A stretch of DNA of 30,025 bases from Fibrobacteria bacterium. Lineage in GTDB: Bacteria > Fibrobacterota > Chitinivibrionia > Chitinivibrionales > FEN-1185. The stretch covers positions 1 to 30,025 of the forward strand of contig JBBIGR010000053.1 of the NCBI GenBank assembly GCA_037447435.1, written 5' to 3'. Both the position numbers and the translations under genes were made by a program. Below are positions 1-9,450 of this stretch, in pieces. The notes under the pieces are model-generated. The model ran no database searches. It was not told where the DNA came from and was given only the letters and a program-made list of their open reading frames with translations. The number at the start of each line of letters is the position of its first letter. Position 1 is the first letter of the stretch.

Positions 1-138
1 GGGTGCCGGATCAAACAATAATCAGGTGCCGAATGGGGCAATATTATGCACTTCATGAAATTATGGGAAAGCCGGTGCGGAATGTCTCGGCTTTATCAGC
101 CCGCGAAGCCTATCCCAATATGAGAAAGAATTTAACAA

Positions 139-1776
139 TTATTTAATCAAAAGCTTTAATTCTTGCATTGTTTTTCCATATTTGATAAACGCTACATAAA
201 ACCCGCATGGGGTAATATAGCCATTAATGTTTTTCCTATCCCAAACATTTTCATTTGATAATGTGCGGATCAAAGTGCCATTGATATTGTAAATATTAAT
301 TTTTGAATTCAAAGGTATTTCGTTAAATCGGACACCTTTATTTGGAAGATAAGAAACTTCAATTTTCGTGGGCTCTTTGAGAGGTAAAAAGCCTTTTTCT
401 GTTTTAGTTGTAATTGGCCCAAAAAGCGTGTCAATATCCTCTTTAGAAAGGACACGGTTATAGATTCTAACATCGTCAATTTTTCCTATAAAATGATAAC
501 CCGAGCCCCCAGTATGGTCTTGCCCAATAAACAGCCTATGATTGTTGCCTATTGCGCCTGAATCGATCATTGATGTATCAAGTTTTCCGTCAATATATAA
601 CCTTAAATTGTGAATTGTGTCTTTGGTAAGCGTTACCATATGCCAATTCGGAGTACCATCCACTTTTGCAGAGGATTTTAAATCATTATCTAAAAACGGA
701 TCTGAAAAATTTTGCCAAGCACCTAACCTCGCCCCAATACTACCGTTTCCTACGCAATAAATTTGTAAGCCCGGCATAGACATATCTTGCCAATCTATTA
801 AAGTTCGCCAGACCGTATTTACATTGGGTGAATTAAACCACAAAGATACGGTCATTGGAAGTACGAAAGATTGTGTCCCTGCTGTAAGGTAACTATTCAA
901 ACCATTAAACAAATACGCGCTATTAGAATTGCCAAATCTATCGGTCGTTAACGTAGCATTAGAAACAGTGCAATTTTTACCATTTCCACTTTCATCATTA
1001 GCATTTCCGTTAAATGGATAATAGACCGATAAACCCGCTTTAACGTTTTGGGGTGGATTTACAACGGTGCTAATAGAATCAGCAAAAAGGCCTTGGATTT
1101 CCTGTTTTGATAAAGCCCTATTGTACAATCTTATTTCGTCAACCGTTCCTGAATAATAGTCTCCTAATTCTGACGATTCGCAACCTATATAAAGCGGTTG
1201 GTCTGAGGGGAAAAGCGAATCCAAATTGAATTTGCCGCTATTGGCAAGATTTGTATCTGACCAAAGGCATATTGAATCTCCATTGTAAGTAATGGCAGCA
1301 AAATACCAATCAGCAGATTTTAAATTTGCAGGCGCTGTAAAATTATAATTCATGCCTTTATACCCTGGCATGTCGTTGTTAAAGCATATAGATTCACCAC
1401 TTTTGCTAACGTCAAACCGAATTCCAGACCCCCCCAATTTTCTTGGAATGCTGACAACCGCCCCGTTTGCTGTGGGTTTGACCCATGCCGTTATTGTAAA
1501 GCTGTTTTTAAAATGAAAGCAATTTGCGCTTGGTACTACAATCCAGCCACCATTTAGTGAAAGGGCACTGCTATCGCGACCATTTCTATCTTTTACAAAT
1601 TGGGCGCCGGTACTTACACCATGGACTGCACCATTGTTAGCGTTTACAGTACTGTCTTTTAAATTGCCATTAAACGGATAATACGCAACCAACCCGGTCT
1701 GTAAATCAATTGCGCCAGCATTAAAACCGCAGAATGCTAGGATCATTCCGGATACTAATAAATAAAAATGTCGCAT
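139..1776 (-). CDS. Secreted protein with two LamG-like jellyroll (concanavalin-like) domains and a C-terminal FlgD-Ig/T9SS type A-like tail
   Basis: Signal peptide; tandem repeats GLVAYYPFNGN...GTVDEIRLYNRALS and GLSVYYPFNGN...GKIDDVRIYNRVLS; C-terminal KINIYNINGTLIRTL...WD...GFYV tail; AGGAGG RBS upstream. Confidence 0.85.
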   Translation of the reverse strand: MRHFYLLVSGMILAFCGFNAGAIDLQTGLVAYYPFNGNLKDSTVNANNGAVHGVSTGAQFVKDRNGRDSSALSLNGGWIVVPSANCFHFKNSFTITAWVKPTANGAVVSIPRKLGGSGIRFDVSKSGESICFNNDMPGYKGMNYNFTAPANLKSADWYFAAITYNGDSICLWSDTNLANSGKFNLDSLFPSDQPLYIGCESSELGDYYSGTVDEIRLYNRALSKQEIQGLFADSISTVVNPPQNVKAGLSVYYPFNGNANDESGNGKNCTVSNATLTTDRFGNSNSAYLFNGLNSYLTAGTQSFVLPMTVSLWFNSPNVNTVWRTLIDWQDMSMPGLQIYCVGNGSIGARLGAWQNFSDPFLDNDLKSSAKVDGTPNWHMVTLTKDTIHNLRLYIDGKLDTSMIDSGAIGNNHRLFIGQDHTGGSGYHFIGKIDDVRIYNRVLSKEDIDTLFGPITTKTEKGFLPLKEPTKIEVSYLPNKGVRFNEIPLNSKINIYNINGTLIRTLSNENVWDRKNINGYITPCGFYVAFIKYGKTMQELKLLIK

Positions 1777-1905
1777 TAAACACCTCCTATTTACATGAAA
1801 TGAATTTCGATATGAATTGATTTATACAAATTTTTGCTTTATATCTTTAATACGAGCGCTGTCTTACTTTGAAAAGAAAAAAGGACGCGACTCTCATTCC
1901 ATCCC

Positions 1906-2014
1906 GTTTCGAGGTACTGGTATACCCAACTGACAAGACGAAAGAAAGCGCGTCCCATACGGGACGCATCCTTCTACTCGTTCTGTCAGTTTGAAAATTA
2001 CCAGTTTTCGAAAC
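1906..2014. ncRNA. Putative structured RNA / long imperfect hairpin
   Basis: Nested complementary segments GTTTCGA/TCGAAAC, ACTGGTA/TACCAGT, AACTGACA/TGTCAGTT and apical GCGTCCC-ATAC-GGGACGC. Confidence 0.5.
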
Positions 2015-2149
2015 AGAAACAAGCAAAGCATGTGTAATCATTTTCAAGTTTTCTTTATCGTGTTTCTATCTATAATCCTTTATTAAAGTCTTCATATTCT
2101 GAACAAAAAATATAAATTCCACCGCTCCAAAATCCTTGACCTTTCCCTT

Positions 2150-2692
2150 TTATTTCCCAAATCCCATTTTCTTTTTTTCTTCCGGCGAATAGTGCTTTTC
2201 TGGCAATTCCGGTTTTGGATGAAAAAGGCTCTTAAGCGCATCGAAAGCAATTTGTATTTGCCTGTCATGAATATTGAGCCGTTTTTCGATGTTGGTAATG
2301 GCTTTTTTTATTTCCGAATTATCGGACACGACATTTCGAAGTTTTACAAAGGCGCGCATAATTTGTACATTGACCTGAATTGCGTGTTCTGAATTTAATA
2401 CGCTCGACAACATGGCCACACCCAACTCTGTAAAAGCATAAGGCAAATATTTTAAATGTTGACCGCGCTTTAAGATCACATTTTGTGATCTTAAAGAATC
2501 ATGTTCCTCTTTGGATAATTGGAACATGAAATCTTCGGGAAATCTTGTGATATTGCGGCGAACCGCCTGGTTCAGCATCCTTGTCTCTACATCGTAAATA
2601 GTAGCAAGGTCGCGATCAAGCATTACTTTTTTCCCTCGTAGGGAATAAATCTTGTTTTCAATCAAATCTTGCGATAGTATGTCCGTCATCAT
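2150..2692 (-). CDS. ORF6N-domain DNA-binding protein (mobile-element associated)
   Basis: IENKIYSLRGKKVMLDRDLA..Y.VETRMLNQAVRRN..RFPEDFMFQL, YLPYAFTELGVAMLSSVLNS; start moved to MMTDIL, which follows an AAAGGA RBS. Confidence 0.9.
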   Translation of the reverse strand: MMTDILSQDLIENKIYSLRGKKVMLDRDLATIYDVETRMLNQAVRRNITRFPEDFMFQLSKEEHDSLRSQNVILKRGQHLKYLPYAFTELGVAMLSSVLNSEHAIQVNVQIMRAFVKLRNVVSDNSEIKKAITNIEKRLNIHDRQIQIAFDALKSLFHPKPELPEKHYSPEEKKKMGFGK

Positions 2693-2798
2693 TTTTCCTT
2701 TCAAAATAATAAAATATAAATTGTCTGACCATTTTCCAAACAAGAACCGCCACTACTTGCCCAAAGTTAACGGCAAGGGCAGCCTCAATGCAGGCATA

Positions 2799-2874
2799 GA
2801 ATTACATAATGGGATCTTATGTGCCCCGGCTTTGCCGGGGTCTCCCTTCGGCGCATAAGCCCATTATGTAACCT
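2799..2874. repeat. Inverted pair of dif-like XerC/XerD-type sites able to fold into a bulged hairpin
   Basis: Plus strand TCGGCGCATAA-GCCCA-TTATGTAACCT (2848-2874); minus strand GGGGCACATAA-GATCCCA-TTATGTAATTC (2799-2827); 12-bp perfect stem 2802-2813/2860-2871. Confidence 0.65.
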
Positions 2875-3140
2875 TGCACCCTGGTTCAAAACGCGGCATC
2901 ATCATTATTTCAGCTTTTGCCGATTAAAAGAAACCTGAATAGCCAATTCTGTCAAAAATCAAAAATCCCTATGGCTATTGATTGATGACTAACATCGGAT
3001 GATATTATTTGGGGCATTTTGACCTTTGCGCTTTTCGGGTCCCTAAGGAAATGAAAAACTGAAAAGGTCGAATTGTACTTTCCCCTTTTTTCCGTAAATG
3101 GTCATATCCGGTATTCGGTTTTAGAAATCCACTTTTTGCT

Positions 3141-3176
3141 ACTCTTGACAAGAGTGACTATCACAGCACTATCACA
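3141..3176. repeat. Short palindrome plus tandem 9-bp direct repeats (possible integrase arm-type sites)
   Basis: ACTCTT-GAC-AAGAGT (3141-3155); ACTATCACA at 3157-3165 and 3168-3176 (11-bp period). Confidence 0.45.
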
Positions 3177-3241
3177 CTTACGGAGAAAAGGGGGGCTTTT
3201 TGGGGTATTTGAGGGTTTTCGGCAAATCGGTTAAAAACAAG

Positions 3242-3286
3242 AAAACCCTCTAAAAATGGCTAATTTGCACACTTTTAAGGGGTTTT
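3242..3286 (-). terminator. Hairpin just 3' of the tRNA, probable intrinsic terminator
   Basis: Minus strand AAAACCCCTTAAAAGTG...CATTTTTAGAGGGTTTT followed by a U-rich CTTGTTTTT tract. Confidence 0.5.
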
Positions 3287-3289
3287 TAA

Positions 3290-3366
3290 TGGTGCGCCCT
3301 GAGAGACTCGAACTCCCAACCGTCTGGTTCGAAGCCAGGTGCTCTATCCAATTGAGCTAAGGGCGC
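3290..3366 (-). tRNA. tRNA-Arg, anticodon UCG
   Basis: GCGCCCT TA GCTC AATTGGATA GAGC A CCTGG CT-TCG-AA CCAGA CGGTT GGGAG TTCGAGT CTCTC AGGGCGC ACCA; perfect acceptor stem, encoded CCA, A20 Arg identity base in the D loop. Confidence 0.96.
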
Positions 3367-3394
3367 ATGGGATTAAAATACATGGAAAACAGGA

Positions 3395-4639
3395 TTATCG
3401 GGCAAAATCCTGTAATTTCATGCCGTCTATCGAAATGTTGTCTAACCAAAGCGTAACTGTGTCGCCGGGGTTATTATCGGGATATTTTGCGACGAACGCG
3501 ATTTTGTAAATCGCGGTGCAGACTTTTTTCCAGGTATATCCCTGGGAAAAGGCGACCGAAGGAATGAAAAGGGAATCGATTGGAATCGAAATGCTTGTCC
3601 ATGTCGAAGGAATCGGTAAGACATGAGAGAATTGAAAGCTGTTGTTTCCGGCCAAGGTATCCAGGATTCGGGAATAAAATCTGACCTCGATTTTGCCCGA
3701 TCCTTTTGCTTCGAATGAAAACGATTTCATTTTCGACAAATCATAAAAGTCGGTCGAATTCGTTGCTCCGATTCTGAACCCGCAAATTGCCCAGGGGAAT
3801 ATCGTGTCGCCCAGCGCGTAAACGATTTTTCTGCTTTGACCTGAAAATGCTTCCCTTCCGTTCGAGTTGTTCTGGAGGATCGTCGAGGTGCCGCCATACG
3901 GCGCATCAAGGACGGAATACCATTCCCCTCCGCCAAGTAACAGCCCCATGGTCGTTTGGCCGGTCGTACCGGAAAAATCGTCAATAAGAACGCTGCTTGT
4001 CGTGATCGGAATATTTCCAAGCGCAGTCGATATCCCCGCTTGGGCGGTGATGTTGCTGCACAGGAACCAAGAAGTTGCGGAATCCGTGGAAACGGACGAC
4101 ATGATGTTGAATGTCCCCTGTGGCAGGCTCGGAAAATAAAAATCGGTTCCCTCGCCGAATGTGGCTTTATAGGCGGTGCCGCTCAATACCATTTTTTGAA
4201 CAACGCCTTGATCGGTGGAAATAAATCCCGAGTATTTTGCAACCGGATGCATGGATAAACTTACCGTATCAGAATCGTGTCCGTACAGGGAAATAATATT
4301 CTTAACGAATACTCCTTCGATGCCGTTGTCGATTTGAATATTGTATTCCGCAGTGTCGGGGACAGAAATCGAATAGTTTCCTTGTGCATCGGTCTGTACC
4401 GAATCAACGACAACCGATTGGTTTTTGTAAATATTATTCAGCCAATTGCGATTGTCGATAAGCAGGATCTTTTCATGGGCGGCAGGCATGCCGTCGCTGG
4501 TAAAAACCCGTCCCTTAAGATTGCCGTTTTCGGAGGTACTGACGCCTCCGGCCACCTTTGTCGGCGATGAGGTACAAGAAAGTAACGAACTTGCCGTCAA
4601 AACGGACAAACACGTTATCATCGTCAATAAACTTTTCAT
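3395..4639 (-). CDS. Lipoprotein: carboxypeptidase-regulatory-like Ig/beta-sandwich domains plus a C-terminal CBM11/CIA30-like carbohydrate-binding domain
   Basis: Lipobox LLSC; SPTKVAGG; C-terminal LIDDF...GGEWY...YDLSKMKSFSFEAKGSG...WTSISIP...LWLDNI; start overlaps the upstream stop (ATGA). Confidence 0.75.
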   Translation of the reverse strand: MKSLLTMITCLSVLTASSLLSCTSSPTKVAGGVSTSENGNLKGRVFTSDGMPAAHEKILLIDNRNWLNNIYKNQSVVVDSVQTDAQGNYSISVPDTAEYNIQIDNGIEGVFVKNIISLYGHDSDTVSLSMHPVAKYSGFISTDQGVVQKMVLSGTAYKATFGEGTDFYFPSLPQGTFNIMSSVSTDSATSWFLCSNITAQAGISTALGNIPITTSSVLIDDFSGTTGQTTMGLLLGGGEWYSVLDAPYGGTSTILQNNSNGREAFSGQSRKIVYALGDTIFPWAICGFRIGATNSTDFYDLSKMKSFSFEAKGSGKIEVRFYSRILDTLAGNNSFQFSHVLPIPSTWTSISIPIDSLFIPSVAFSQGYTWKKVCTAIYKIAFVAKYPDNNPGDTVTLWLDNISIDGMKLQDFAR

Positions 4640-5493
4640 GATAGCGGCCCTTGCGCTTTGTTTTCCATTACGCCGACGTCCTCGCTTATAGGGAACAATT
4701 GGAAGTTAAATTGGTAAACCTGCGAGCTGTGCTCGTCTCGGGTCACGATGGTTTTTACGCGTTCCTTGAATGCAGCCAATTCGGTGAGGAGTACGTCATA
4801 GCAAACGGGTGAAATGCCAAGCGTCATTGAGGAAATATTCCGTTTTGTCGTGGGCAGGCTTTCATTGGCTTCCTTTGCTCTTTCAAGCATGGCGCTATTG
4901 AAGGATCGCCGCGCCAAAGCAACCATTTCATCGTTGCTCACAATGGCCTGATTCGATTGCGCGTAAGTACCGTCGGGTTGCTTTACCAGAAGCTTGAGCC
5001 GTAAAAGGAGCTGAACCGATTTTTCGGCATCCCGCGTGGAAATCGCCGGGCGAACCGCCTTTCCAAGCAAGGAAAAATTGTCCTTAAAATCATGCAAGCA
5101 AACCAATTCCCGAATGATGCTGTGATACCAACTTTCAAAATATGAGAAATGGTCTGCCGATAATTGAAATTCTTGAACATAATCGCCCATGCTCAACAAG
5201 ACGCTGTAATGTTCTTGTTTTTCATTTGCGGTTCGTGCTTGATTGAATAAAACGAGATTACGAAAAAACAGGCTTTCCTTTTTGTTCAAATCCAGGGATT
5301 TTGCAAATTTATCAATCATCGGCGGAGTTAAGTTACGTTTCCCGTCGATAACTTCCTTTAAAAACGCCGGAGATTTTATATCGGAATGCTGGGCAAAATA
5401 GCGATATGAAAAATATCGTGTCGTTTGTTTCTTGTGATTATAAAAATCAGCAAGAAAAACGCGATAATCGATATAACTAAAAATTCGTTTCAT
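4636..5493 (-). CDS. TIGR02147 family protein (N-terminal HTH-like region, C-terminal DUF4423), putative regulator
   Basis: IFSYIDYRVFLADFY..KK....FSYRYFA...SPAFLKEVIDGKRNLT, FRNLVLFNQA, WYHSIIRELV, RNISSMTL, VYQFNFQLFP. Confidence 0.88.
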   Translation of the reverse strand: MKRIFSYIDYRVFLADFYNHKKQTTRYFSYRYFAQHSDIKSPAFLKEVIDGKRNLTPPMIDKFAKSLDLNKKESLFFRNLVLFNQARTANEKQEHYSVLLSMGDYVQEFQLSADHFSYFESWYHSIIRELVCLHDFKDNFSLLGKAVRPAISTRDAEKSVQLLLRLKLLVKQPDGTYAQSNQAIVSNDEMVALARRSFNSAMLERAKEANESLPTTKRNISSMTLGISPVCYDVLLTELAAFKERVKTIVTRDEHSSQVYQFNFQLFPISEDVGVMENKAQGPLS

Positions 5494-5497
5494 ACTA

Positions 5498-5509
5498 GTA
5501 TAAATATAC
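5498..5509 (-). promoter_or_regulatory. GTATATTTATAC element 4 nt upstream of ATG (-10-like box of a nearly leaderless mRNA, or operator)
   Basis: Identical 12-mer at identical spacing before the ATG at 13778; no Shine-Dalgarno. Confidence 0.5.
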
Positions 5510-6025
5510 GCGCTTTATTGTTAGAAAAAACAGAGAAAATCATTATAATGCGCATCTTTTAACAATAATGAGAATGCATATAGTTGTAACATGCTAAAAT
5601 ATAACACTTTAGATATTAGGTTGTTACTGTCTGTAATAGTTTTGAGTACAAAAAATTCAATATTCGGACATAGTTCCGGTTTTGTCGGAAGTTTTAGAGA
5701 TCAGTAGGCTGCTTTTTTTTGTGAGGGGCAATGCGTTTATGTTGTGGAATAAAGGCTTGTGAATAAAATTTAAATATATGAAACATATAATATATAATAA
5801 ATACAATGACTTATGAATAAAAATGATAAATTAATAAAAAAAATAGAAAATATTGAAAGAATTTTAATTGAAATAATGCTATATTATTTGCAATAAAATT
5901 TGAGTTAAAACAAGAGGTTTCAGGAGGATTGCGCCATAGCGGAAGACGTTTGCTATAAATTAAGTGGTCTGCACAGTAATTCGAAAAATGTCTTTATATA
6001 ATCTTTAATCAACGAAGGGGAGTGT

Positions 6026-7189
6026 ATGTCGTTTTTTTCTCAATCGGCCCGTTTGGGGCTCTGGACAATGGCTGCTGTTGCTTGTTTACATGCGCAAACG
6101 GCGACCATGACGGGAATCGTAAAAAACAACACCGGATCCGCATTGAACGGCGCAAAAGTATCGCTTTCCGTTCTCGGGTTGACTACGCAAACGTCGAGTG
6201 ACGGCAAGTTCTCTTTCAGCGGAATAACTTCTGCAGCGGTCGGCTTCCGGGCCCATGCGGTAAATTCGGTAAAATTGCAGGGGACAAAATTCAATCTGAC
6301 GATCGCTTCACAAAGAGAAAAAGTTTCATTGGAATTGTTCGATCTGGCAGGCCGTAACTGCAAAACTTTGATAAATCGGGAACTGCAGTCCGGAGCATAT
6401 GTCCTCGATGCCGCTTCTGCGCAACTACCCGCATCGATGTATGTGGCAAAAATACGGATAGGCACGGTCGTCAACTGTTATACCGTATCATTGCTTAGCG
6501 GAAACGCGGTAAAATCGTTAGGATGCACTCGGTCGGGCAATGCGTCGGGAATCCTTTCAAAGCAAGCCATTGCGATCATCGATACTATTGTCGTCGATAT
6601 GGCCGGATATGGAAAAAGTTATACGCCTATAGCAAAATATGCCAGCGATTACACCATAGTTTTGGATCCCAAAGCAACAGCCGTGAACACGAAGATTTTT
6701 TCCGAACGTGCATTTGCGCAAATCGATTGGGGAAAGACAAATGTTCAAGTTTGGGATAATGCGGGCGGACCTTCCGGGACACAGTTGAATGGCAGCTATC
6801 CGGACGCTTTTGAAGGAGCGGTCGGTTGGAAAGCGGTTTGCGGGTACGGTTTTTCGGTATGGGTTTTTCGTACCGCAAATCCCAATGGTGTCGATATGTC
6901 GGCTTTTGAGGGCGGTTATTTGCATGTTGCCGTTAAAGGAAGCGTTCCGAGTTTAGGCATGTTTGTGACGTCGGTGGGCAGCCAGAATCCGCGATTGGAT
7001 TTGTCGACGCTGGGCTATTCCGACGATGGAAAATGGCATGAACTCAAAATACCTTTGACGAGCTTCGGTACCATCGATTTGTCGAAGCTCGATGTTTATT
7101 GCGGGTTTGCCGCGCCGGCTGTTGATAACGGGGATTATGCCGCCGGATTGTCGTATGTTATAGACGATTTATATTTCATGCCGAAATAA
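6026..7189 (+). CDS. Secreted modular protein: carboxypeptidase-regulatory-like N-domain, internal FlgD/T9SS-tail-like domain, C-terminal CBM-like domain
   Basis: Signal peptide; GIVKNNTGSALNGAKVSL; VSLELFDLAGR..KTL...LPASMYVAKI; DMSAFEGGYLH..KG...DGKWHELKIPLTSF...YVIDDLYF; GGGGAG RBS. Confidence 0.7.
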   Translation: MSFFSQSARLGLWTMAAVACLHAQTATMTGIVKNNTGSALNGAKVSLSVLGLTTQTSSDGKFSFSGITSAAVGFRAHAVNSVKLQGTKFNLTIASQREKVSLELFDLAGRNCKTLINRELQSGAYVLDAASAQLPASMYVAKIRIGTVVNCYTVSLLSGNAVKSLGCTRSGNASGILSKQAIAIIDTIVVDMAGYGKSYTPIAKYASDYTIVLDPKATAVNTKIFSERAFAQIDWGKTNVQVWDNAGGPSGTQLNGSYPDAFEGAVGWKAVCGYGFSVWVFRTANPNGVDMSAFEGGYLHVAVKGSVPSLGMFVTSVGSQNPRLDLSTLGYSDDGKWHELKIPLTSFGTIDLSKLDVYCGFAAPAVDNGDYAAGLSYVIDDLYFMPK

Positions 7190-7228
7190 TAACACCGTGA
7201 TGATATCTTTGCCGAGAGGGGTACAATA

Positions 7229-7255
7229 AAAACGGACCGAAATTCGGTCCGTTTT
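7229..7255. terminator. Bidirectional intrinsic terminator between convergent genes
   Basis: Perfect 12-bp stem AAAACGGACCGA-AAT-TCGGTCCGTTTT flanked by A and T tracts. Confidence 0.85.
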
Positions 7256-7304
7256 ATTTTACCCGGTGTTTGGGGAATGGATCAAACCTGTTGCCTGCTT
7301 TTTA

Positions 7305-8612
7305 TCACCTCATGCGTAAAGCCCAATAAATTGAATTCTCAAACAACGTCCAACCCAGTGCGTTAAAATGGACCATTGCGTCGGCATGAAACGAGAATGC
7401 AACCCGCCGTGCGGGTGCTTGCATGGTAAACATTTGCGCCCCTATATCATACGTAAATAAAATAACATGATTGACATCGCCGTAAACCGATACGACAAGT
7501 TTGCTGAAATCGTTCGGCCTTCCCCAAACCATTGGTAAAGAATCCGTTTCGACGATTTGAATGCCTGCTAATCCCGGTGAAATCGGGTTTGCGACATCGC
7601 GCATTTCAACAATGGTCAGTTTCAGGGAATCCGGAATCGAGGAAACGCTGTCCTTGTTATAAACGGTAAAATCGGTTCCTCTTATTTTTCCGGTCATATC
7701 GAGCAATGGATAGGTTGCCGGTTGGCAAGTGATTATCGGAATGGACAATGTTTTCAAAAAGCCGAGTGAAGCGCCGCTTACCAACGGGGATATCAGCACA
7801 AGGTCCTTGTTATTGCAATCTGCGGCCAAAACAGCTGATTCTGCTTTTGTCACGACCGCCAGGCCGGTTCGTCCGATATTGGAAACGATCAAATCCTCCG
7901 CAGGGGCAAGGGCCGAATTCGCACAGATGAGCAAACAGGTCGCAGTACCGGCAGCGGTCGTGCAATTCGGTTGAACCTGAATGTTTTTCGCGACAGAAAA
8001 CGTCGGCTCTTCGCTGTAATAGTCGTAATAGGCAAGAGACGGCAATGAGCCGGCCGGAATATGATCGATAATGACGGCACTTTGGGTGGTAGGGATCCTT
8101 GTATAAACGTCGGTACCGGGTATGAAAAGAAAAGCGCCTGGCAATAAGGGCTTGTTGGGCAATAATGCGACAAAAAGCGCTCCCGGCTTTCTGAGTGAAT
8201 CGCTGCGCAGCACGATCGTATCGGCGTTTTTGACGGCTATGTTAGGAATGTATAACGATGTCCGAAGATCGGGGCCTGCTTCATAAACCGCATACACCGC
8301 ATAATTATTGCTTTTAACGTCTGAGAAACTGTACACTCCGTTGGAATCTGTCGCGGTACTATATGAAAAAGAGTCTGTAGAAGTATCTTTAGTTTGCAAA
8401 GGATTGTAGTCTTGAGGCAATAGTCTGACCGTTATTCGCGATACTGCCGTACCGCCGGCTGTGGTTATAGAGCCCGATATTTTTGCATTGGAAACGTCTG
8501 TCCCGCCTCCGGCAACGGTAGGGCTTTTCGACGCACATCCAAAGAATAACGAAGCGCAAATTGTTAGGCCAAGCAAGAGGAACGAGGCGGTATTACGGTT
8601 TACCATGCGCAT
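7305..8612 (-). CDS. Lipoprotein: carboxypeptidase-regulatory-like domain plus a C-terminal alpha/beta (class I GATase-like, apparently non-catalytic) domain; alternative start 8606
   Basis: Lipobox FFGC; SPTVAGGGTDVSN; TDSNGVYSF; C-terminal DLVLIS...PARRVAF...GWTLFENSIYWA; overlaps the end of the upstream TIGR02147 gene. Confidence 0.7.
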   Translation of the reverse strand: MRMVNRNTASFLLLGLTICASLFFGCASKSPTVAGGGTDVSNAKISGSITTAGGTAVSRITVRLLPQDYNPLQTKDTSTDSFSYSTATDSNGVYSFSDVKSNNYAVYAVYEAGPDLRTSLYIPNIAVKNADTIVLRSDSLRKPGALFVALLPNKPLLPGAFLFIPGTDVYTRIPTTQSAVIIDHIPAGSLPSLAYYDYYSEEPTFSVAKNIQVQPNCTTAAGTATCLLICANSALAPAEDLIVSNIGRTGLAVVTKAESAVLAADCNNKDLVLISPLVSGASLGFLKTLSIPIITCQPATYPLLDMTGKIRGTDFTVYNKDSVSSIPDSLKLTIVEMRDVANPISPGLAGIQIVETDSLPMVWGRPNDFSKLVVSVYGDVNHVILFTYDIGAQMFTMQAPARRVAFSFHADAMVHFNALGWTLFENSIYWALRMR

Positions 8613-9450
8613 CTGCCTTTGTCAAAGGAAACAGATTGACGTTTACCTGATAAACCCTGTTAACATGAGAATCGGCTTTTGCAATTTCTAAAAGTTCGAG
8701 CCGCATTTGTTCTATTCGTTTGATTGCCATATCGTAGCTTTTTTCGGAAAGGCTGAGCGTTGTATTGGATGTGTTTCGTTCGGTTTTAAGCCTTTCACTG
8801 AGCGACTGTGCGGCAAAATGAACCATAGTTTTGTGAAATGCCCTTGCAATCGTATTGAGCATTTCCTGTTCGCCGATATCGCCGGTTGCCAATGTCTTGT
8901 CTTTTTTTACCAGTTTTCCGCTCTCATTTCTGCCGATAAACCCTTTTTTTTCGAGAAATGCGAGCGAGCCTGCAACGTCGCCCGAATCGACGGAAAAAAG
9001 CAATTTTTTGGCAATCCAATTGGGATCGTCGACAAAATCGGGTAATTCCACCATTTCCCTGATTACACAATGATACCATTTCGCAAGGTAATCAAATTCT
9101 TCAGGTAAAAGCTTTTCAGGCCTGTTTTTTTTTCGGAATTTATTTATCGTGTCGAGGTGCATCCCTTTTTCTTCGAGGGATGTCGCTTGATTAAAAAAAA
9201 CGAGTTCGGTAAAGTAGTCCGCTTGCTTTTTCTTTAAATGCAACCCCGTTATTATCTTTTGAATGCTTTGAGGCGTGAGGTTTTTTTTGCCTTGCATGAC
9301 CAATTTTAAAAAACTGGGCGATGAAAACCCGGTCATTTCGGCAAATAAACTGAAAGTAAATCGATCCGAAGAGGTTTTTTTTCTGGAATAAAATTCCTTT
9401 AAAAAAAGCCTGAAATCGGAAAAATTAAAAATTTCCTTATTGATGTTCAT
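8593..9450 (-). CDS. TIGR02147 family protein (second copy)
   Basis: IFNFSDFRLFLKEFY..KK, SPSFLKLVMQGKKNLT, LVFFNQA, WYHCVIREMV, RNTSNTTL, VYQVNVNLFP. Confidence 0.88.
   Translation of the reverse strand: MNINKEIFNFSDFRLFLKEFYSRKKTSSDRFTFSLFAEMTGFSSPSFLKLVMQGKKNLTPQSIQKIITGLHLKKKQADYFTELVFFNQATSLEEKGMHLDTINKFRKKNRPEKLLPEEFDYLAKWYHCVIREMVELPDFVDDPNWIAKKLLFSVDSGDVAGSLAFLEKKGFIGRNESGKLVKKDKTLATGDIGEQEMLNTIARAFHKTMVHFAAQSLSERLKTERNTSNTTLSLSEKSYDMAIKRIEQMRLELLEIAKADSHVNRVYQVNVNLFPLTKADAHGKP

Follow-up and report, generated by a model that had tools for sequence, protein, structure and literature searches.

A Folded Pair of dif-Like Sites

In this work, we ask what two inverted dif-like sites, lying 20 bp apart and neither of them with a 6-bp spacer, may be doing near a tRNA gene of a Fibrobacteria bacterium. 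Together they make up a 76-base hairpin at positions 2799-2874 of the window, that is, the whole 30,025-nucleotide stretch of DNA analysed here. Its parts are the following:

2799..2827, minus strand: site A, GGGGCACATAA-GATCCCA-TTATGTAATTC read from 2827 to 2799, with a XerC-like arm (2827-2817), a 7-nt spacer (2816-2810) and a XerD-like arm (2809-2799)
2848..2875, plus strand: site B, TCGGCGCATAA-GCCCA-TTATGTAACCT, with a XerC-like arm (2848-2858), a 5-nt spacer (2859-2863) and a XerD arm (2864-2875)
2814..2815: bulge of 2 nt, separated from the XerC arm by one base pair
2816..2859: key pair C2816:G2859, which adjoins the predicted XerC cut and encloses the XerC arms and the loop
2824..2840: competing GC hairpin CCCCGGC-TTT-GCCGGGG, inside the variable loop

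Folding of 2799-2874 as DNA gave -22.6 kcal/mol for the plus strand and -22.7 kcal/mol for the minus strand (z of -6.2 and -5.6, respectively), and none of 200 shuffled sequences was equally stable. A preliminary description of this DNA had reported two inverted sites with 7- and 5-bp spacers, 20 bp apart, and the sequence agrees. The perfect stem, the AT bulge and the CTTATG/CATAAG pairing that it proposed are likewise borne out by the predicted fold, in which the pairs 2802-2813/2860-2871 and 2816-2821/2854-2859 have probabilities of 0.91-1.00 on both strands. The competing GC hairpin that it mentioned is present, with the qualification that it overlaps the outer half of the XerC arm of site A, so that only 5-6 bp of this arm pair in the predicted fold (the outer pairs have probabilities of 0.24-0.47 on the plus strand and 0.04-0.06 on the minus strand).

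A relaxed finder run on the 96 contigs of this 5.05-Mb genome returned the hairpin as the sole one of its form. BLAST of window positions 2700-2960 against 40 relatives gave no matches, and the hairpin region matched nothing in a plasmid collection. Close copies were found on two contigs from other runs (single low-depth contigs), beside ORF6N-type sequence. Both copies are changed at bulge base 2814 and at the weak pair 2860 (C2860T) and both retain the key pair, while one of them additionally gains a stem pair at 2801. Runs X2-X5 cover small shares of the stretch only, too little to claim a habitat, and X4 and X5 contained no sequence matching the hairpin.

A Widespread Family of Covarying Hairpins

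Hairpins of the same layout were found at no fewer than 120 genome loci (at least; a lower bound from a scan that is not a random sample), mostly in Bacteroidota and also in the window's order; they lie at dif, in tRNA islands or beside elements with recombinase pairs. With the first spacer left free between 4 and 14, the 123 matches listed had a first spacer of 7 in 78 cases, 6 in 14, 5 in 8, 11 in 7 and other lengths in 16. Among the listed 7/5 forms (first and second spacer), 77 of 78 fold. In viral contigs, the 7/5 pattern gave nine matches, of which four are distinct and fold; four others belong to one AT-rich coding look-alike family without a stem, and two of the nine are one sequence. 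When the first spacer was left free, 9 of 10 viral matches were 7/5 and the tenth does not fold; a second spacer of 6 nt gave 11 matches, including 7/6, 11/6 and 12/6 forms. A further spacer class is represented by 7/6 hairpins at dif in two Flavobacteriaceae genomes (L177, L178).

Closer to home, a short-loop pattern run on 296 genomes of the phylum matched in the window's genome (G000) and G079 alone, and a match in G019 was set aside as chance. A longer-loop search matched in 7 of 81 genomes of the order, with folding matches in G041, G044, G045 and G020 and non-folding ones in G056, G031 and G027. The first four carry 13 folded 6/5 hairpins, mostly with C:G at the key pair, and their dif centre, TACATA, lies elsewhere. 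Five of the 13 lie immediately within the 3' end of a tRNA and are oriented with their 5-site towards it, as in the window, and a further, G:C hairpin in G045 faces the opposite way. The multi-copy 6/5 hairpin loci of these genomes are L225-L227 and L231-L240. In G041, G044 and G045 the copies lie within a 600-800-bp non-coding repeat with differing neighbour genes, often by tRNAs, and split copies flank single genes on contigs C10 and C127 of G041.

The preliminary description had envisaged covariation that preserves the bulge, and this was found. Across 55 unique 7/5 cores from the matches listed, the window's register, with the same 2-nt bulge, came out best of six, scoring 190 of 275 cells, with 167 for the runner-up. 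Four core positions held 164 Watson-Crick pairs, whereas shuffled cores gave 84 +/- 6. When double changes were counted independently in 36 of the 78 sequences, the window included, there were 93 of them; shuffling gave 30, and slid controls no more than 35. Each position shows three to four pair types, which, in sequences that are not independent of one another, appears to go beyond what shared descent readily gives.

The pair next to the XerC arm is Watson-Crick in 47 of the 55 cores (T:A in 20, C:G in 18 and G:C in 9, on the strand that reads the 5-site first) and a T:C mismatch in seven; G:C or C:G thus occupies the key pair in 27 of 55, while T comes first in 6 of the 7 unique 6/5 cores. 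Since complementarity is kept across three identities, self-pairing is retained where a match to dif is not.

The wobble pairs carry a strand signal. At the first core pair, read on the 7-first strand, C.A occurs 20 times and G.T not once in the 55 cores, a bias pointing to the 5-first strand as the one that probably folds (in the window, the minus strand, which codes for the island's rep gene). The wobble total is 57 versus 38, with the outer flank positions leaning the opposite way. For the window copy the signal is mixed, given that the wobble T2822.G2853 and the C2860T of its relatives favour the plus strand.

Taken together, the dif-like arms, the conserved bulge and the covariation uphold the earlier proposal of a compact Xer-type site, folded from single-stranded DNA and without 6-bp spacers, and we are highly confident that the hairpin is a real, selected site of this kind. 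We found no description of the family in the open-access literature. Judging from sequence comparisons, the hairpin belongs to a widespread and apparently undescribed family, whose members likely recombine only as a folded single strand.

The tRNA-Arg Island

The hairpin lies 0.4 kb from the 3' end of a tRNA-Arg gene, within a genomic island whose other features in the window are:

1..56: terminal part of a multicopy IS, up to position 50, followed by the 6-bp target duplication CTTCAT (51-56)
139..1776, minus strand: LamG-domain cargo gene
2150..2743, minus strand: ORF6N-domain gene, reading away from the hairpin; start likely the ATG at 2692 (by eye)
3157..3189: double repeat of ACTATCAC, which recurs at the integrase end (C9:140710-140741)
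3290..3366, minus strand: tRNA-Arg(TCG), whose 3' 45 bp (3290-3334) are duplicated at C9:140593-140637 as the island att core

Next to the att copy, the end of contig C9 carries a tyrosine integrase, an excisionase-like gene, a 351-aa protein (Rep) and frames of 75 aa and 256 aa. This contig end and the start of the window are opposite ends of one multicopy IS, and among 15 left and 13 right IS flanks the CTTCAT duplication is common to these two alone. The IS ends and the common duplication thus join C9 to the window, giving an island of about 7.5 kb without the IS. Its order is int, xis, rep, two small genes, LamG, ORF6N, hairpin and att, all on the window's minus strand, and the double repeats of ACTATCAC are likely integrase arm sites.

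Rep alone is weakly G2P-like, below the Pfam cut-off (E 0.0026; nothing at 0.001). Its homologues are more telling: 42 of 56 aligned match Phage_CRI/G2P, their alignment has invariant R126, D128, Y175, K177, R200 and E202, and in the Atlas Rep scored 0.97 to Phage_CRI clusters. The structure model was poor (pLDDT 47, too low for a fold search). Comparison with solved structures gave no significant match, and no Rep was found in phage records. A Rep search found one other genome among 296, plus one short metagenome match; the other Rep-bearing island of the order (in G061) has no exact dif-like site in 20 kb. Proteins of the G2P kind start rolling-circle replication and release the coding strand.

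Three sister islands have homologous Int (70%, 36% and 33% identity), Xis and ORF6N, two of the islands being close kin. In each of the three, a single plain pseudo-dif, with a 6-bp centre unlike that of dif, lies upstream of xis, whereas the hairpin island has none there. We read the hairpin as the probable single-strand counterpart of this plain site. Lone 6-bp pseudo-dif sites with non-dif centres also occur in mobile elements of relatives (L213-L216 in G002, L253 and L254), three of them directly upstream of xis-int.

The ORF6N gene adjoins the hairpin in four Bacteroidota loci as well, and a DUF1016/YhcG gene takes its position beside a hairpin or dif-like site at L182 (by Pfam), L257 and G045:C50 (both by eye). 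According to the preliminary description, the hairpin could be a cassette boundary beside the ORF6N and LamG genes. No further dif-like site (at most one mismatch, spacer of 5-7) was found in window positions 1-3400 or at the C9 end, and the two genes are therefore not established as Xer cassettes.

A second, long hairpin lies upstream of the LamG gene at 1877-2026 (z of -4.7/-4.8, no Rfam match), with copies at C23:63875-64026, at C93:1741-1899 and on several contigs of other runs; it is possibly a leader RNA or another DNA site. The C23 copy falls within a second island-like end (C23:61230-70046, L023) with a divergent tyrosine recombinase and, by eye, a LamG-like gene. Beyond the tRNA, window positions 3395-9450 contain a paralogous cluster in which two DUF4423 genes are each accompanied by genes with carboxypeptidase-regulatory-like domains; DUF4423 paralogues point to Fibrobacterota as the probable phylum.

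Host dif and a Proposed Role for the Hairpin

A search for the host's own Xer system, which the preliminary description had pointed to, proved informative. The host dif, AAGTCGTATAA-TATATA-TTATGTAACCT, lies at C17:17839-17866 near the GC skew change, has a 6-bp centre and is the sole such site. The TATATA centre recurs in four of five genus mates (4/4 of the well-assembled ones, the fifth being 73% complete) with the same neighbouring genes, as judged by eye. The XerD arm of site B is identical to that of the host dif over 12 nt, and this 12-mer occurs twice in the genome (dif and site B) against 158 times for its first eight letters; the XerC-like arm of site B has CGCATAA, the same as in the genus dif. 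The genome has a xerC-like gene on contig C22 (322 bits, NCBIfam cut-off 335) and a xerD-like gene on C61 (298 bits, just below the cut-off, and truncated by a contig end). An integron integrase above the TIGR02249 cut-off is also encoded in this genome (C10:452-1387, L211), on a separate contig from the hairpin.

At the predicted XerC cut, the hairpin has G:C on either strand and the host dif has T, so neither joint could pair and entry into dif is not expected. A G-first 6-bp site combining a TTATGT(A/T)A arm with a CATAA core is absent from the host genome. Integration of the island at dif was rejected, as dif is on contig C17 and the att duplication is at tRNA-Arg, and a look-alike on contig C7 was dropped, being at a stop codon and without a partner site.

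The reading we favour, tentatively and at a little under even probability, is that the hairpin may serve the island as its own single-strand Xer resolution site, likely bound by the host XerC/XerD only after the single strand folds. Int and Xis would excise the island at tRNA-Arg, and the G2P-like Rep would make island single-stranded DNA by rolling circle. Folding would then hide the unusable 7- and 5-bp spacers and yield a single duplex resembling dif, in which the XerD arm is outermost and the XerC arm lies at the loop, with one base pair beside the XerC cut and the 2-nt bulge. XerC could exchange one strand pair between two folded copies, which would turn a single-stranded dimer directly into two circles, that is, resolve multimers. 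In integrons, attC x attC exchange resolves a single-stranded dimer the same way. The G:C at the cut would fit a second copy of the hairpin and not the T of the host dif, so that the latter would be avoided. Xer exchange between two folded sites was not found in the literature searched. Other results that speak against this reading are the G061 island with Rep and no exact dif-like site, the Bacteroidota islands with intact hairpins and no rolling-circle Rep recognised nearby, the low score of Rep itself, the mixed strand signal, the seven T:C mismatches at the key pair, the loci beside element-encoded recombinases and the small number of sister islands compared.

Relatives at dif and Alternative Readings

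Part of the family is found at dif itself. In 5/5 genomes tested, chosen from 11 folded 6/5 matches listed, the 6-bp site of the 6/5 form is the host dif and the sole TT(T/A)ATA centre. Five other Bacteroidota genomes have one such centre each (one of them TTTACA), away from their 7/5 hairpin; these dif-centre searches gave 0-2 unrelated matches each, as did the control. Given the reversed geometry, a single exchange with dif on the XerC side would be expected to produce an isolated site with the long spacer at one end and, at the other, a junction of 5-site, loop and 6-bp dif. In G297, a lone 11-site lies 11.3 kb from a 5/6 hairpin, as expected for the exchange product, and the interval holds restriction-modification-like genes and no recombinase recognised by eye. 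G296 and G299 have 6/5 forms at dif and intact 11/5 or 7/5 hairpins at inner junctions. In the kin joined to dif, the exchanged strands are pairable at the first base alone (T:A or T.G), which suggests that one base pair next to the cut suffices for compatibility. Earlier reports describe pairing next to the cut as deciding compatibility (PMC3089051, PMC4246890, PMC3442271).

These products argue for taking the hairpin as an attP for integration at dif, a second entry route or a remnant, usable where a dif or pseudo-dif starts with G and idle here. Islands of the same order do contain 6-bp pseudo-dif sites that start with G (GGTCGA in two cases), and in Vibrio cholerae difG likewise begins with G, with a CTX variant of its own (PMC3089051). 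However, the dif centres seen in the order begin with T or C and none with G, the host genome lacks a suitable G-first site, and the XerD arm shared with the host dif, together with the G:C kept in both copies from other runs, fits current use. We consider this reading rather unlikely. As to the IMEX attP remnant suggested in the preliminary description, the comparison holds insofar as kin are joined to dif as attP products would be, and fails for the window copy, which is intact, off dif, misfit at the key pair and part of an island with its own integrase. The same picture emerges from four integrase-bearing Bacteroidota islands, which have one intact hairpin each over 40-53 kb, far from dif, three of them unfit for dif. 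No rolling-circle Rep was recognised near the site in Bacteroidota islands with intact hairpins.

The stacks of G296 and G299, with their intact inner sites, could instead point to an integron-like Xer cassette system, the hairpin being a seam at which ORF6N or LamG was captured or excised between folded sites. Cassette-like arrangements of this type, in which copies flank variable genes, do occur in kin: G041 has two cases of a hairpin-gene-partial hairpin repeat, G045 has two direct copies 10.8 kb apart, and in most Bacteroidota loci the variable cargo stops 130-400 bp short of the 7-site. Nevertheless, the island and genome studied here have a single site, a second hairpin was present in just 3 of 64 folded loci mapped (up to 6 kb on each side) and the four islands mapped over 40-53 kb have one hairpin each, which makes a cassette seam improbable for the window copy.

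Some relatives lie in elements with recombinases of their own. One recurrent element combines an XRE gene, a primase-helicase, two tandem tyrosine recombinases, sometimes ORF6N, the hairpin and often Rhs pieces (L075, L076, L095, L107, L115, L116, L118, L121, L194-L195, L247 and L256); G304 has tandem copies 7,046 bp apart, and L095 has two inverted hairpins. In Flavobacteriia islands, 25 loci (L055-L124) have on the 5-site side a conserved module (e.g., L198:1147-2327) coding for a 250-aa protein without a Pfam match, DUF5675, DUF6943, small membrane proteins and in some cases a nuclease; this may be a minimal module of a virus-like or lysis kind.

A tyrosine recombinase gene lies near 13 loci, mostly as a tandem pair beside a primase, and these element-encoded enzymes may be the acting ones there. 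The site might then serve such pairs or act double-stranded, as a cruciform mimicking a Xer Holliday junction and leaving two hairpin ends; we infer that 7 and 5 average the 6-nt strand length of a Xer junction. Yet a cruciform needs no pairing of the 7 and 5 spacers, which covary, and would give no strand bias, and the hairpin's island has no recombinase pair, so that we hold this to be very unlikely. A structured RNA, a terminator or a palindrome arisen by chance deserves almost no credit as an explanation of the hairpin: an RNA stem would show the G.T bias too, but the tRNA was the sole Rfam match, a promoter and terminator scan stayed at chance level with no terminator-like site at the hairpin, the arms are dif arms with kin fused to dif itself, and spacer enrichment and covariation exclude chance.

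Implications

In the literature searched, CTX-like filamentous phages are the only elements for which Xer recombination on a folded strand is described. The family offers natural covarying substrates on which to test XerCD on folded DNA and target choice by one pair, and also whether integron cassettes arose from Xer-using elements. The hairpin signature would moreover flag defence or toxin islands at dif that are missed by integrase-based island finders. A wider reading, possible although we doubt it more than we believe it, is that widespread attC-sized folded Xer sites run an integrase-free cassette system on XerCD in which the key pair is the address: T types would enter and stack at dif, and C/G types would be private island channels. 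They would then be a living intermediate between phage-type IMEX sites and attC. An intermediate between such sites and integron attC is proposed in an earlier paper (PMC4792948), and the hairpin is a candidate for connecting phage-type integration sites with the gene cassettes of integrons.

Comparison with Known Xer and Integron Sites

The preliminary description likened the hairpin to the CTXphi attP. The likeness to attP(+) stands for the folded pair, as in both a pair of inverted sites resembling dif, with centres other than 6 bp, folds up into a single Xer site; in addition, the hairpin arms resemble the host dif, the host has xerC-like and xerD-like genes, the products at dif in kin are consistent with a single XerC-side exchange, and compatibility depends on the position beside the XerC cut (PMC3089051, PMC4246890, PMC3442271). 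The layout, in contrast, is the mirror image. In the CTXphi attP, the XerC arms are outside and the XerD arms at the loop (PMC3089051), whereas the hairpin family has XerD arms outside and XerC arms at the loop. The CTX spacers are 12/7 over about 150 nt, against 7/5 with a fixed 2-nt bulge over about 60-100 nt. Unlike a CTX-type IMEX, the island sits at tRNA-Arg with its own Int and Xis, the dif location being seen in the tested kin, and its G:C key pair is mismatched to the T-first host dif TATATA.

With integron attC sites the hairpin shares a compact folded single strand, outer and inner boxes, an asymmetric centre, extrahelical bases, a variable loop, strand bias (mixed for the window copy) and micro-homology at the cut (PMC4792948). 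In contrast to the structure-only recognition of attC, the family has conserved Xer arm sequences, and its exchange would take place at the inner, loop-side arm instead of the outer R box. The core boxes of attC read RYYYAAC ... GTTRRRY, and the hairpin lacks them as well as the GTT/AAC triplet. There is also one site in the island and genome, without repeated sites round single-gene cassettes, although some kin form stacks.

Acinetobacter pdif/dif modules and other plasmid or island Xer sites are similar in being element-borne Xer sites with a centre differing from dif, and the plain sites of the sister islands are of the pdif-like kind. For inverted pdif pairs, one report proposes folding and has XerC/D binding a mismatched fold in vitro (PMC7399989). 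Still, pdif sites have 6-bp centres, act in double-stranded form and flank a gene, whereas both sites of the hairpin are non-canonical and lie 20 bp apart. Going by the features that its letters allow us to compare, the hairpin is predicted to act like both CTX attP(+) and attC, yet it would appear to be a member of neither.
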